This document shows, in pieces, positions 30,114-61,682 of a stretch of DNA of 64,000 bases; positions within the stretch are counted from its first letter, which is position 1, and each line of letters begins with the position of its first letter. The notes under the pieces are model-generated. The model saw only the letters and a list, made by a program, of their open reading frames with translations, had not been told where the DNA came from and did not search any database. The DNA lies in the NCBI GenBank assembly GCA_947428835.1, contig CANENE010000002.1, forward strand, positions 16,901-80,900, written 5' to 3'. The DNA is from an uncultured bacterium (lineage in GTDB: Bacteria > Cyanobacteriota > Vampirovibrionia > Gastranaerophilales > Gastranaerophilaceae). The position numbers were made by a program, and so were the translations under genes.

Positions 30114-30167
30114 TGTTATTTTTTTGTGTTAGATTATGCGCCTTTGGTTTTCAAAGGTGCTTTTTTT
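30114..30167 (+). terminator. Conserved 3' box (TGTTATTTTTTTGTGTTAGATTA) plus rho-independent terminator
   Basis: Box begins 5 nt after the stop. Hairpin GCGCCTTTG-N5-CAAAGGTGC plus T7 at 30138-30167. Confidence 0.75.
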
Positions 30168-30235
30168 ATGGATTTCTGCGGTATATTAAAAATATGCCTC
30201 GCAATGACAAGTATAAACATTAATTTAAACAACTC

Positions 30236-30337
30236 GTCACCCTGAACTCGTTTCAGGGTCTAACCAGCTTTGGGATATTATATGAAATTTATTATTCATA
30301 CTAACACATCAAATGCTGAAACAAGTTCAGCATGATG
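30236..30337. repeat. REP/MITE-like composite repeat (L hairpin plus inverted R hairpin), copy A
   Basis: L is GTCACCCTGAACTCGTTTCAGGGTCTAACC (30236-30265). R is AAATGCTGAAACAAGTTCAGCATGATG (30311-30337). GCCTCGCAATGA boxes at 30196 and 30371. Confidence 0.8.
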
Positions 30338-30410
30338 TATGGAAGCCAGAATTGCCACGGCGATAAAATTGCCTCGCAATGATGATTGTCTACAACACCC
30401 TTTCAAAATT

Positions 30411-30437
30411 AAAAAAAACGCAAGGGGTAACCTTGCG
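30411..30437 (-). terminator. Rho-independent terminator of the 30476..31696 gene
   Basis: Minus strand reads CGCAAGG-N5-CCTTGCG followed by T8. Confidence 0.8.
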
Positions 30438-30475
30438 TTAAGTAATTTAAGTTAAGCGGAATGTGGGTGTGTAGA

Positions 30476-37823: not shown

Positions 37824-37876
37824 TGTTATTTTTTGTGTTAGATTACGCACCTTTGGTTTTCAAAGGTGCTTTTTTT
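37824..37876 (+). terminator. Conserved 3' box plus rho-independent terminator
   Basis: TGTTATTTTTTGTGTTAGATTA, then GCACCTTTG-N5-CAAAGGTGC plus T7 (37847-37876). Confidence 0.75.
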
Positions 37877-37988
37877 AAAGGCTTCTGCCAGAGTACTCTG
37901 CCGGACTTGAAGTGCATTGAATTGCACTTCAAGACAGAGGGAAGTTAAAAAATGGCAAACGTTGAGTTTGACATTTTCTGCATACCGA

Positions 37989-38203
37989 CACCTCAGATGC
38001 TGAAACAAGTTCAGCATGACGTATGTGGACATTGGGGCTTGCATTCGTTATTATGAGAGTTTCTATAAGAAATTCAGGATATTCCAGAAAAACAAAATTT
38101 GCGCAATTCGTCACCCTGAACTTGTTTCAGGGTCTGACCAAGTTTGTGGCAACGCATAAAGTCAGTTATTGTTCATTACTTAGATGCTGAAACAGATTCA
38201 CTT
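37989..38203. repeat. REP/MITE-like repeats, copy set B (R, L, degenerate R)
   Basis: R is CACCTCAGATGCTGAAACAAGTTCAGCATGACG (37989-38021). L is GTCACCCTGAACTTGTTTCAGGGTCTGACCA (38110-38140, with tail AGTTTGTGGCAACGCATAAA). Degenerate R at 38181-38203. A separate 11-bp-stem hairpin lies at 37906-37933. Confidence 0.8.
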
Positions 38204-38270
38204 CGACATAATCACACCTAATTGTAAACAAATGTAACAAATAACTTTGACGAGGCAATTATTTCAATTA

Positions 38271-52946: not shown

Positions 52947-54575
52947 ATGACAAAATATATTTTTATAACAGGCGGCGTTGTAAGTTCCCTTGGAAAGGGA
53001 ATTGTAGCTGCCTCTCTTGGTAGGTTACTGGTTTCGCGCGGATTTAGTGTTACAATTCAAAAATTTGACCCTTATATAAATGTGGACCCCGGTACTATGA
53101 GTCCTTTCCAACACGGAGAAGTATTTGTTTGTGAAGATGGAGCAGAAACTGATCTTGATTTAGGGCATTATGAAAGATTTATTGATACATACCTTTCGCA
53201 GGCAAATAATGTAACATCAGGAAGTGTTTATCAAACTGTAATAAATAAAGAAAGACGTGGCGAATACTTGGGCGCTACTGTTCAGATGATTCCTCATATT
53301 ACAGGTGAAATTAAATCCCGTCTTATTATGGCATCAAAAAGAACAAACCCCGATTTTTTAATAGCAGAAGTCGGTGGAACCATAGGCGACATTGAAGGGC
53401 TTCCATATATAGAAGCAATCCGCCAGTTTAGATCCGAAATCGGTTATAGAAATTCAATGTCAATCCATGTGACTTTGCTTCCCTATCTTCCTACATCAGG
53501 AGAGCTTAAAACAAAGCCTTCTCAGCATAGTGTAAATGTTTTAAGAAGCTATGGAATACAGCCTGAAATGCTTGTATTAAGAACACAGGTTCCTGTTGGA
53601 AAAACAGAAAAAGACAAGCTTGCGTTATTTTGTTCGATGGATAAAAATTGTGTTATTGAATGTAAAGATATGAAATCTATCTATGAAGTGCCACTGGCGC
53701 TTGAAGCGCAAAATATGACAAGCGAAGTTTTGAAAATATTAGATGTTGAAGACAGACCCTCTAATCTTGATGACTGGAAAGAATTGGTTCACAAAATCAA
53801 AAACCCAAAAAGCGAAATAACAATAGGATTGGCCGGAAAATATACGGAATTAAACGATGCTTATATTTCTGTTGTTGAAAGCTTAAAACATGCCGGGCTT
53901 AAGTTTGATACAAAAGTCAATATCAAATGGATTGCTTCAGAAGAAATTGTAGATGACAAAGAAGCTGCCTCGCATCTTGCCGATGTGGATGGTATTGTAG
54001 TCCCCGGGGGTTTTGGAGTGAGGGGAATTGAAGGCAAATTAAAAGTAATTAAATATGCAAGAGAAAATAATATTCCATATTTGGGCTTGTGTTTAGGAAT
54101 GCAATGCGCTGTTATTGAATTTGCAAGAAATATGGCAGGGCTTGAAAATGCCAATTCAACAGAATTTGATAAAAATACTAAACATAAAGTAGTTGATCTT
54201 ATGGAAGAACAAAAAAACATAGCAGGCTACGGTGCCACTATGCGTCTTGGCTCTTACCCTTGTAAGATTGAAAAGAACACAAAGGCATTTTCTGCTTATA
54301 ATAAAGAATTAATTTTAGAGCGCCACAGACACAGATTTGAATTTAACCATGAATATAAAGAAGCTCTTGAAAAAGCAGGGCTTAAGATTTCAGGAACAAG
54401 CCCTGACGGCTTGCTTGCTGAAATTGTTGAATATCCTAAAAATGATTGGTTTGTGGCATGTCAATTCCATCCGGAATTTAAATCCCGCCCGCAAAATCCT
54501 CATCCTTTATTTTTGGGACTTATGGAAAACGCTGTCAAAAGAAATAGAAATATTAATAAGCAGTTTGCTATTTAA
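52947..54575 (+). CDS. pyrG: CTP synthase
   Basis: [17 protein letters not shown]-terminus and glutamine amidotransferase GLCLGMQ / HRHRFE motifs. Confidence 0.95.
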
Positions 54576-56471: not shown

Positions 56472-56524
56472 TGTTATTTTTTGTGTTAGATTGAGGCTTT
56501 TTCTTTGATTGAGCCTCTTTTTTT
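56472..56524 (+). terminator. Conserved 3' box plus rho-independent terminator
   Basis: TGTTATTTTTTGTGTTAGATT, then GAGGCT-N13-AGCCTC plus T7. The stem sequence differs from the other copies. Confidence 0.7.
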
Positions 56525-56542
56525 AAAAAAGCTTTTTAATTT

Positions 56543-56684
56543 GTCGCCCTGAACTCGTTTCATGGTCTAACCAGGTCTGTGGCGTTACATCTTTTTTACA
56601 TACCAACACCTCAGATGCTGAAACAAGTTCAGCATGACGTAGCGCGTATATTAATGTTTCAATTTGTCACGGCGAGTGATTATA
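56543..56684. repeat. REP/MITE-like composite repeat, copy C (L, R, third box)
   Basis: L is GTCGCCCTGAACTCGTTTCATGGTCTAACC (56543-56572). R is CACCTCAGATGCTGAAACAAGTTCAGCATGACG (56607-56639). GTCACGGCGAGTGA at 56666-56679. Confidence 0.8.
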
Positions 56685-61153: not shown

Positions 61154-61205
61154 TGTTATTTTTGTGTTAGATTACGCACCTTTGAAAAACAGAGGTGCTT
61201 TTTTT
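61154..61205 (+). terminator. Conserved 3' box plus rho-independent terminator
   Basis: TGTTATTTTTGTGTTAGATTA, then GCACCTTTG-N5-CAGAGGTGC plus T7. Confidence 0.75.
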
Positions 61206-61221
61206 AAAAGCTTCTTAACTC

Positions 61222-61486
61222 GTCACCCTGAATTCGTTTCAGGGTCTTACCAGGTTTGTGGTAACGCATAAAACCCGTTGTTACGCTTCAACACCTCAGA
61301 TGCTGAAACAAGTTCAGCATGACGCAACTGCGCATTGATGTTTATTTTCGTCACTGCAATGACATATTTTAAACATTAATTTATATAACCGTCACCCTGA
61401 ACTCGTTTCAGGGTCTTACCAAGTAAAGTAAAATAAATAATTATTATATTACACCTCAAAATATCAGATGCTGAAACAAGTTCACT
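61222..61486. repeat. REP/MITE-like composite repeats, two tandem units (copy set D) between convergent P4 and P5
   Basis: L1 at 61222-61252 (plus tail to 61272), R1 at 61292-61324, L2 at 61391-61422, degenerate R2 at 61465-61486. GTCACTGCAATGAC at 61350-61363 with its inverted partner ATTGCAGTGAC at 61611-61621. Confidence 0.8.
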
Positions 61487-61628
61487 TTGGTGTATAGAAG
61501 TCTTTTTGCACACATAGGTCATCATTATTTGTAAAAACAGTAAATTATAAATTTATCAATTTTTTAATTATATTTCGCACCTGCAACGAAACTGCTGCAA
61601 GCTAAAGACGATTGCAGTGACATAACAT

Positions 61629-61682
61629 AAAAAAAGAGGTCTGAAAAATTTCAAACCTCATAATCTAACACAAAAAATAACA
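61629..61682 (-). terminator. Conserved 3' box plus rho-independent terminator of P5 (minus strand)
   Basis: Minus strand reads TGTTATTTTTTGTGTTAGATTA, then GAGGTTTGAAA-N3-TTTCAGACCTC plus T7. Confidence 0.75.

Follow-up and report, generated by a model that had tools for sequence, protein, structure and literature searches.

CGTC-tagged hairpin repeats behind variable pilin-like genes of a Gastranaerophilales bacterium and their probable GIY-YIG nuclease partner

A stretch of 64,000 nucleotides (nt) from an uncultured bacterium of the Gastranaerophilaceae (assembly GCA_947428835.1, contig CANENE010000002.1; C2:16901-80900 of genome G000, hereafter the window) carries four clusters of short hairpin units, here named L, R and B, close to pilin-like genes (P1 to P5). 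With a probability of about 0.8, these units are CGTC-tagged palindromic repeats of the Ssn-related motif (SRM) kind, partnered with a small GIY-YIG nuclease whose gene lies elsewhere in the genome and is itself bracketed by inverted copies of the units. Judged from their sequence, the inverted L-R dimers are best read as gene-less copies of this nuclease cassette. The genome comprises 1.80 Mb in 24 contigs with 32% G+C and is 97.7% complete. An original prediction made from the window had taken the units for non-autonomous mobile elements or elements of the repetitive extragenic palindrome (REP) type, confined to the flanks of pilin-like genes.

Hairpin units and their composite arrangement

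In the window, the L pattern CGTCACCCTGAAYTYGTTTCAGGGTCT matches the + strand at 30235, 38109, 56542, 61221 and 61390 (n = 5) and the R pattern matches the same strand at 30305, 37989, 56607 and 61292 (n = 4), while 100 shuffles of the sequence gave no match to either. The positions assigned to the units in the original prediction are borne out by these matches, and so is its statement that the reverse complement of R resembles L with compensatory stem changes: the former reads CGTCATGCTGAACTTGTTTCAGCATCT, the latter CGTCACCCTGAACTCGTTTCAGGGTCT, and the compensatory pair is CC..GG versus TG..CA. When L and R are folded as single-stranded DNA (ssDNA), CGTC is left as an unpaired 4-nt tag ahead of an 8-bp stem that closes a 5-nt loop and ends in a short tail; the energy is about -7 kcal/mol for each, and none of 200 shuffles folded as well. 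L, B and the opposite-strand R all begin with CGTCA or TGTCA, the tag being unpaired in the fold. The first stem letters are AT in R and AC in L (the CC..GG variant), and the tail is TCT, in place of which the sphingomonad copies of the unit have CCA. Across the whole window no Rfam family was matched at the gathering threshold, and a literature lookup with the sequence strings of the units returned unrelated primers only.

Alignment of 34 L-R dimers with their flanks revealed a larger composite that includes a third hairpin type, B (CGTCAYTGCRAGG...GCAATC). It lies 25-26 nt outside L, R or both in about half of the copies, with its tag toward L/R, and its tag-plus-stem occurs 56 times in the genome. 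The full composite, found in about half of the dimers, has the order B< - 26 nt - L> - 45-73 nt - R< - 25 nt - B>, the longest of these intervals being the spacer from L to R. The "third box" noticed earlier is real and corresponds to the tag-plus-stem of this second hairpin family; the L/R dimer described at that time stands as well, but not its extent, since about half of the dimers carry outer B units.

Identity among copies amounts to 93% in L, 82% in R, 63-69% in the inner tails, 58% in the middle of the spacer and 39% in the outside flanks; the spacers as such range over 58-68%. The arms are thus far better conserved than the spacers, which argues for constraint or conversion acting on the hairpins and against a recent burst. 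A variant with a destroyed 3' arm, R*, recurs at at least seven loci, so copies descend from copies. Relatives also have units in head-to-tail arrays that repeat every 29 nt and in arrays of alternating L and R that repeat every 99 nt (G015:C29:53-193; G003:C2:3134-3455).

A GIY-YIG nuclease gene bracketed by the units

A domain search of the genome placed GIY-YIG at four positions, one of which (C6:55843-56067) falls inside a unit cluster (C6:55776-56144). At this site, outside the window, an open reading frame of 103 amino acids (aa; G000:C6:55831-56139) covers positions 2-78 of the 78 in the Pfam GIY-YIG model (E 1.5e-16). The gap from the end of an R-type unit to the ATG is 29 nt. At the other end of the gene an inverted L unit runs over the stop codon, so that its hairpin supplies the codons of the final residues, DPETSSG*; next, past a 25-nt linker, comes a B unit. 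Residues Y8, Y19 and E66, read from the sequence, are spaced identically to the catalytic Y6, Y17 and E64 given for SsnA from Neisseria meningitidis in the published account (Chenal 2025, Nat Commun 16:2388, PMC11893778).

The same layout recurs in relatives. Among 40 related genomes, eight closest homologues were scored, which rank above the 60%-identical homologue at locus L132. In each of them the distance from the gene to an upstream CTGAAC-type unit is 25-55 nt, and in seven it is 25-29 nt. An inverted unit lies 7-22 nt downstream in seven of the eight; at L126 it is 81 nt downstream, behind an extra same-strand unit. No unit is shown at L132. In a second GIY-YIG clade, about 50% identical, B-type hairpins stand downstream instead, so each nuclease clade appears to have its own hairpin. 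Occurrence is likewise linked, as all 8 genomes with a first-clade nuclease carry units (3-53 each) and none of the 16 unit-free genomes has the nuclease. Besides the flanking hairpins, every cassette carries, 8-9 nt ahead of the start codon, a -10 box of the extended type (TGnTATAAT; G000:C6:55803-55832; L126-L131, L150). Since this box is near the ATG and no ribosome-binding site is visible, the nuclease mRNAs are probably leaderless. One nuclease gene of a relative (G020:C1:102013-102300, L130) contains an in-frame TAA after about 27 codons, in a genome with 27 units. An apparent partial nuclease gene in G019 was rejected, the gene being merely cut by a contig end.

The partner implied by the original prediction was a REP-associated tyrosine transposase (RAYT). 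No Y1_Tnp domain (PF01797) was matched in this 97.7%-complete genome, and the identical search was positive in 6 control genomes; the gene flanked by units is the GIY-YIG gene instead. Of the designation "REP-type, non-autonomous", the kind therefore stands (tag plus hairpin, inverted dimers, 3' intergenic positions, 0-53 copies among congeners), but not the implied enzyme.

Relation to known repeat systems

According to Chenal and colleagues, Ssn proteins form a GIY-YIG family of about 94 aa (CDD cd10448, GIY-YIG_unchar_3) flanked by NTS/SRM repeats, and SsnA binds its hairpin as ssDNA only and cuts a few nt 5' of the tag. Among Ssn homologues there is a preference for the own repeat, natural transformation of Neisseria is modulated by the system, and the repeat-gene-repeat layout was likened by the authors to an insertion sequence (PMC11893778). 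Features in common with the present system are a GIY-YIG protein that has one domain, about 95-103 aa and an identical Tyr/Tyr/Glu spacing, a gene bracketed by inverted hairpin copies in which CGTCA forms the 5' tag and C follows the stem, a repeat present in tens of copies and clustered near surface-protein genes, and clade-specific cognate hairpins. The present system differs in its hairpin core, which is CTGAAC-N3-GTTCAG-like, AT-richer and missed by the SRM pattern, and in its host, a Gastranaerophilales-type bacterium, probably of the gut. Dimers that lack the gene and keep the promoter region of the cassette are described here, a point that does not occur in the parts of the paper on which this comparison draws.

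The published SRM pattern, HGTCWYN(0-2)YYVSBRHN(0-5)WNVSBRGN(0-2)RNCYNB, is a search tool derived from 29 genomes and no family definition. Because the CTGAAC-type hairpin escapes it, published counts of Ssn-associated repeats are probably too low. A motif broad enough for these repeats would include the CTGAAC and TTGCGAGG types.

A second close relative is the group of CGTC-tagged REPs, which comprise four families, have 8-9-bp stems and 4-5-nt loops, form inverted dimers 3' of genes and occur in five phyla (Di Nocera 2013, BMC Genomics 14:522, PMC3733652). These were reported to "apparently lack a dedicated transposase", with no RAYT flanked by CGTC repeats, and to have A-T then T-A as first stem pairs and an unpaired tail with the consensus CCA (PMC3733652). 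The units studied here resemble them in the unpaired CGTC tag, the 8-bp stem, the 5-nt loop, the short tail and the inverted hetero-dimers, as well as in lying between convergent or co-directional genes, in having no transposase nearby and in a copy number that varies widely among related species. Unlike that group, reported from five phyla and without a dedicated enzyme (PMC3733652), they are found in further lineages and with a flanked GIY-YIG gene.

The REPs of Escherichia coli and Pseudomonas, organised as bacterial interspersed mosaic elements (BIMEs) and as REP doublets forming hairpins (REPINs), are similar in that two hairpin types alternate at fixed linkers, one "domesticated" enzyme gene is flanked by them and the positions are 3' intergenic. 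There the tag is GTAG and the enzyme a Y1 HUH transposase, whereas here a CGTC tag goes with a GIY-YIG nuclease in a RAYT-free genome. The intergenic mosaic elements of Neisseria, bounded by dRS3 and situated near pilS, opa and further variable surface genes, provide a further parallel as mosaic short-repeat arrays bounded by tagged hairpins beside a large variable surface-protein family; organism and repeats are different, and the present arrays stand on the 3' side only, past terminators.

The unit is also widely distributed. The 25-mer pattern GTCA-NN-CTGAAYTYGTTTCAG-NN-TC occurs in 15 of 24 congeners, in 0-27 copies compared with 53 in this genome, and in at least 120 contigs of species-representative genomes. 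Hosts among the matches listed include Sphingomonadales, many Bacteroidota, Treponema, Ignavibacteria, Nitrospirota, Elusimicrobia, Gastranaerophilales, candidate-phyla bacteria and a Nanoarchaeota bin. Among these listed matches, which come from many phyla, the two free stem positions pair with each other in 150 of 157 copies, in seven pair types. In tblastx comparisons the genome of the window comes nearest to bins labelled Candidatus Gastranaerophilales, which makes such a lineage probable; an exact look-up of the window's 542-aa protein at 52947-54575, probably GroEL, gave no match. Three listed loci include a homologous GIY-YIG gene, with a unit beside the gene at L011 and L098 and none directly past the stop at L081. 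In bins of ultra-small organisms (L019, Nanoarchaeota; L005, L015, L031, L044, L054, L095 and L116, candidate-phyla bacteria), the identical CTGAAC hairpin occurs, often beside GTCATTCCGAG-type hairpins.

Dimers as probable gene-less forms of the cassette

Three stretches are common to the dimers and the cassette of this genome: the unit itself, about 15-23 nt after R with a -10-like box among them, and about 16 nt preceding L. The last of these code, in the cassette, for the final residues of the nuclease. In the relative G018, dimers beside the cassette have 22 of 23 nt after the unit, the -10 box included, in common with its promoter region. In the dimers the -10 box still reads from R toward L and so, with L proximal, back toward the P gene. 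The sequence ATGAATAAGC..., present in longer spacers, is similar to the opening codons of the nuclease genes of relatives. Local alignment of the spacer middles for coding remnants gave a mean z of about 1 relative to shuffles, weak support for such remnants and a point against the gene-less reading, so the claim is limited to the arms, the inner tails and the -10 box and does not extend to a proven deletion series.

Clusters in the window

The units, linkers and terminators at the four clusters of the window are as follows (position, strand, feature).

30138-30167, +: intrinsic terminator of P1, stem-loop and T-run; the repeat cluster begins only past it
30170-30209, -: B-type hairpin unit, TGTCATTGCGAGG...CCGCAGAAATCC on the - strand, tag toward L over a 25-nt linker
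30235-30261, +: L unit with CGTC tag, 8-bp stem ACCCTGAA/TTCAGGGT and 5-nt loop, from pattern match and fold
30262-30310, no strand: spacer of dimer 1; inner tails in common with the nuclease cassette ends, -10-like box reading from R toward L
30311-30337, -: R unit, CATCATGCTGAACTTGTTTCAGCATTT on the - strand, stem ATGCTGAA/TTCAGCAT, from pattern match and fold
30345-30384, -: second B-type unit, CATCATTGCGAGGCAATTTTATCGCCGTGGCAAT...
30417-30446, -: intrinsic terminator of a convergent 406-aa gene; cluster 1 lies between the P1 terminator and this one
37995-38021, -: R unit of cluster 2 (order R< then L>), pattern match
38109-38135, +: L unit of cluster 2; a degenerate R without 3' arm comes next, at about 38180-38206
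56542-56568, +: L unit of cluster 3, 3 mismatches and a weakened stem, 76 nt past the P3 stop
56613-56639, -: R unit of cluster 3, followed by a B-like box GTCACGGCGAGTGA at 56666-56679
61176-61205, +: intrinsic terminator of P4
61221-61247, +: L unit of the first dimer of cluster 4, pattern match
61298-61324, -: R unit of the first dimer of cluster 4, pattern match
61349-61364, +: B-type tag and stem CGTCACTGCAATGACA, between the two dimers of cluster 4
61390-61416, +: L unit of the second dimer of cluster 4, pattern match
61462-61490, -: R* variant GATGCTGAAACAAGTTCACTTTGG, 3' arm of the hairpin replaced; present at at least 6 further loci
61629-61659, -: intrinsic terminator of P5; cluster 4 is flanked by the P4 and P5 terminators

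Genome-wide association with P genes

A census of the genome with a tolerance of at most 5 mismatches gave 93 units in 56 clusters. These copy numbers are lower bounds because the assembly breaks at repeats; many contigs terminate in a unit or a P gene (for instance C12:44, C15:40350, C24:9086, C8:93017 and C1:227970). The P genes, which encode a prepilin N-terminal motif and an Lcl_C/DUF1566 domain, form a family of 45 members. All four clusters in the 64 kb do lie 3' of P1, P2, P3 or P4/P5, as had been stated, but the view that the repeats are confined to such flanks fails genome-wide: 24 of the 56 clusters abut the 3' end of a P gene, and the remaining 32 adjoin unrelated genes, nearly all in 3' intergenic regions. 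The enrichment is nonetheless strong. A cluster lies at most 450 nt downstream of 24 of the 45 P genes (53%), compared with 46 of 1485 other genes (3%; odds ratio 36), the nominal p of 2e-22 being overstated because the P paralogues are non-independent. The repeats are thus strongly, though non-exclusively, associated with the 3' flanks of this variable pilin-like family.

Occupied intergenic regions are convergent in 25 cases, tandem in 19 and divergent in 1. The L end points toward the P gene in 21 of 24 clusters, while no preference exists at other genes (21 L versus 25 R). With respect to GC skew, the orientation is with it in 26 cases and against it in 29, so orientation has no link to the replication strand.

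The 3' flanks of the P genes have a regular structure. Each P gene of the window is followed by a box GTTATTTTTTGTGTTAGATT and a terminator (30114-30167, 37824-37877, 56472-56530, 61154-61205 and, on the - strand, 61629-61682). The terminator stems differ from gene to gene; about 28 GTTATTTTTTGTGTTAGATT boxes exist genome-wide and are common to diverged P subfamilies, which suggests, at the sequence level, homogenisation of the P 3' flank. Nearly all P genes with an intact 3' flank show GTTATTTTTTGTGTTAGATT and the terminator, with the first unit a few nt to some tens of nt farther on, and at least three classes of junction can be distinguished: the T-run, AAAGCTTCYTAAY and L, in seven genes from different P subfamilies (with a B unit at the same junction in one gene); the T-run, 3-15 nt and L; and the T-run, 1-4 nt and B. 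These junctions can be read as a mix of repeated insertion or rearrangement past terminators and the spread of a shared 3' flank together with L. At three P genes, a repeat of about 150 nt (GCTTCTGCCGGAGTTGAAGCG...GGATTGCCACG) lies between the P terminator and the units (window 37878-37990, C9 after 64489, C12 before 14184).

Diversification of the P family

At C3:76817-80306 (- strand, outside the window), a P1-like target gene stands with genes for an Avd-like 144-aa protein and a 390-aa reverse transcriptase (RT) and with 213 nt of non-coding DNA that copy the 3' end of the target at 92.5% identity. P1-like genes with the same module at C17:793-1005 and C6:757-969 show 87-88% identity. The variable columns fall at codon positions 1-2 in 31 of 37 cases, mostly of NNC/NNT codons; because of this pattern beside an RT, at least part of the P family is, by sequence criteria, diversified by a diversity-generating retroelement (DGR). 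At 11 of the 15 positions where it differs from the cis copy, the copy behind the RT has T rather than A, and it is not adenine-rich at variable sites; it looks like another variable repeat, and no template repeat was found at C3:76.8-80.3 kb.

Alternative readings

Of the other explanations, the one that fares best can coexist with the nuclease reading, and holds that arrays and nuclease form points at which recombination or transformation of the variable P family is controlled, by analogy with the role proposed for the NTS/dRS3 arrays near pilin and surface genes of Neisseria. The recurrent AAAGCTTCYTAAY junction followed by L in seven P genes and by B in another, the conserved 3' flank common to diverged subfamilies and the breaks of synteny at the elements are consistent with it. 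ComEC and DprA are present in the genome, so transformation is at least conceivable; in addition, the DGR targets include some P genes, and the non-coding DGR repeat copy has a dimer about 190 nt away. This evidence is circumstantial, the paralogues are non-independent and the units stand only 3' of the P cassettes in the window, and such a role is considered a minor possibility. The units may also provide homology for recombination, as the original prediction had proposed. Somewhat more speculative is the proposal that CTGAAC-type dimers and the Ssn nuclease are functionally tied to hypervariable surface-protein genes, in which case the arrays just past the terminators might mark where ssDNA (cDNA or transforming DNA) is cut, limiting cassette exchange or mutagenic homing.

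It is unlikely that the units are RNA-level elements of the P genes, that is, 3'-untranslated-region (3'-UTR) stabilisers, terminators or insulators selected for P expression. The strong enrichment 3' of P genes and the L end facing the gene in 21 of 24 clusters speak for such a role, and the REPs of E. coli can act in 3' UTRs. Against it, in the two window clusters scanned (30196-30383 and 61221-61490) the units start only past the P terminator, a stem-loop with T7, and lie between two facing terminators; hence transcript stabilisation or insulation, offered earlier as a possible function, is improbable as a primary role. A terminator-like hairpin with T6 faces the cluster within at most 120 nt at 20 of 52 clusters, compared with 29 of 400 random positions in long intergenic regions. 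Moreover, 32 of the 56 clusters are at unrelated genes, no Rfam family matches, and SsnA does not bind RNA according to the published work (PMC11893778).

Lower still stands an ordinary MITE (miniature inverted-repeat transposable element), derived by deletion from a DDE-type insertion sequence that has terminal inverted repeats, and moved in trans by the transposase of the latter. A size of 100-230 bp, long imperfect inverted symmetry, the R* subfamily in at least seven copies and a patchy distribution among congeners would fit. Target-site duplications, named in the original prediction as something to look for, were sought at the element ends and none was found (1.85 observed, compared with a null of 1.78 from shuffled pairings). 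The sole gene-bearing relative encodes a nuclease and not a transposase (among the transposase families scanned), and the identical 25-mer extends from Alphaproteobacteria to candidate-phyla bacteria and a Nanoarchaeota bin, unlike lineage-bound insertion sequences.

A classical REP/REPIN mobilised by a RAYT, as first suggested, is hardly tenable: inverted dimers of tagged hairpins in 3' intergenic regions do resemble REPINs and BIMEs, but the genome lacks Y1_Tnp, the tag is CGTC and not GTAG, no RAYT flanked by CGTC repeats was reported (PMC3733652), and the gene actually flanked by units encodes a GIY-YIG nuclease. Integron attC sites were dropped, as the genes are convergent and not arranged in cassette arrays, and the core sites do not fit.

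Weighing the nuclease reading and a possible mechanism

Several observations weigh against the reading of the units as nuclease-partnered repeats and of the dimers as gene-less cassettes. The SRM pattern matches none of L, R and B and has 1 match in the genome, compared with 0-2 in shuffles. Units without a first-clade nuclease are present in ten related genomes. For the C6 nuclease family, PDB and NCBIfam returned no matching structure or model, and its Ssn-type assignment is made from sequence and architecture. The closest whole dimers are only about 90% identical, with no sign of current activity. The outward tags would place 5' nicks on opposite strands, from which alone no transposition pathway follows.

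Occupancy in congeners speaks on both sides. In favour of the reading, a dimer 3' of adk and another 3' of a gene for a 395-aa membrane protein occur only in this genome among 30 congeners each, a lineage-specific occupancy. Both flanks are unoccupied in 29 congeners each, but the neighbours differ. Downstream of the convergent 406-aa gene, the orthologous region of 11 congeners has neither P1 nor units, with synteny lost, and an exact-word scan of metagenome contigs for a near-identical strain gave no match. Against the reading, these comparisons yielded no clean empty site, because synteny breaks at the elements.

If the nuclease reading is correct, a mechanism may be outlined from the anatomy. 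In the ssDNA state, the nuclease would bind hairpin and tag and nick a few nt 5' of the tag, by analogy with the published work on SsnA. Such nicks, followed by repair or recombination, may once have spread the cassette and its gene-less copies. Selection or gene conversion would now preserve the hairpins as sites for the nuclease, as the far better conservation of the arms than of the spacers suggests. The excess at P genes could be due partly to a shared 3' flank that was amplified or homogenised with L attached, and partly to repeated insertion directly past terminator T-runs.

Implications

The view of these repeats as belonging to the pilin-like cassettes is corrected by the genome-wide census. 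The apparent gene-less copies of the cassette bear on the question whether the nuclease spreads its repeats, and the hairpin type GTCA-NN-CTGAAC...GTTTCAG-NN-TC proves to be very widespread while being missed by the SRM pattern. In this genome, the pile-up of units behind a 45-member and partly DGR-diversified P family echoes, in a distant gut lineage, the situation in Neisseria.

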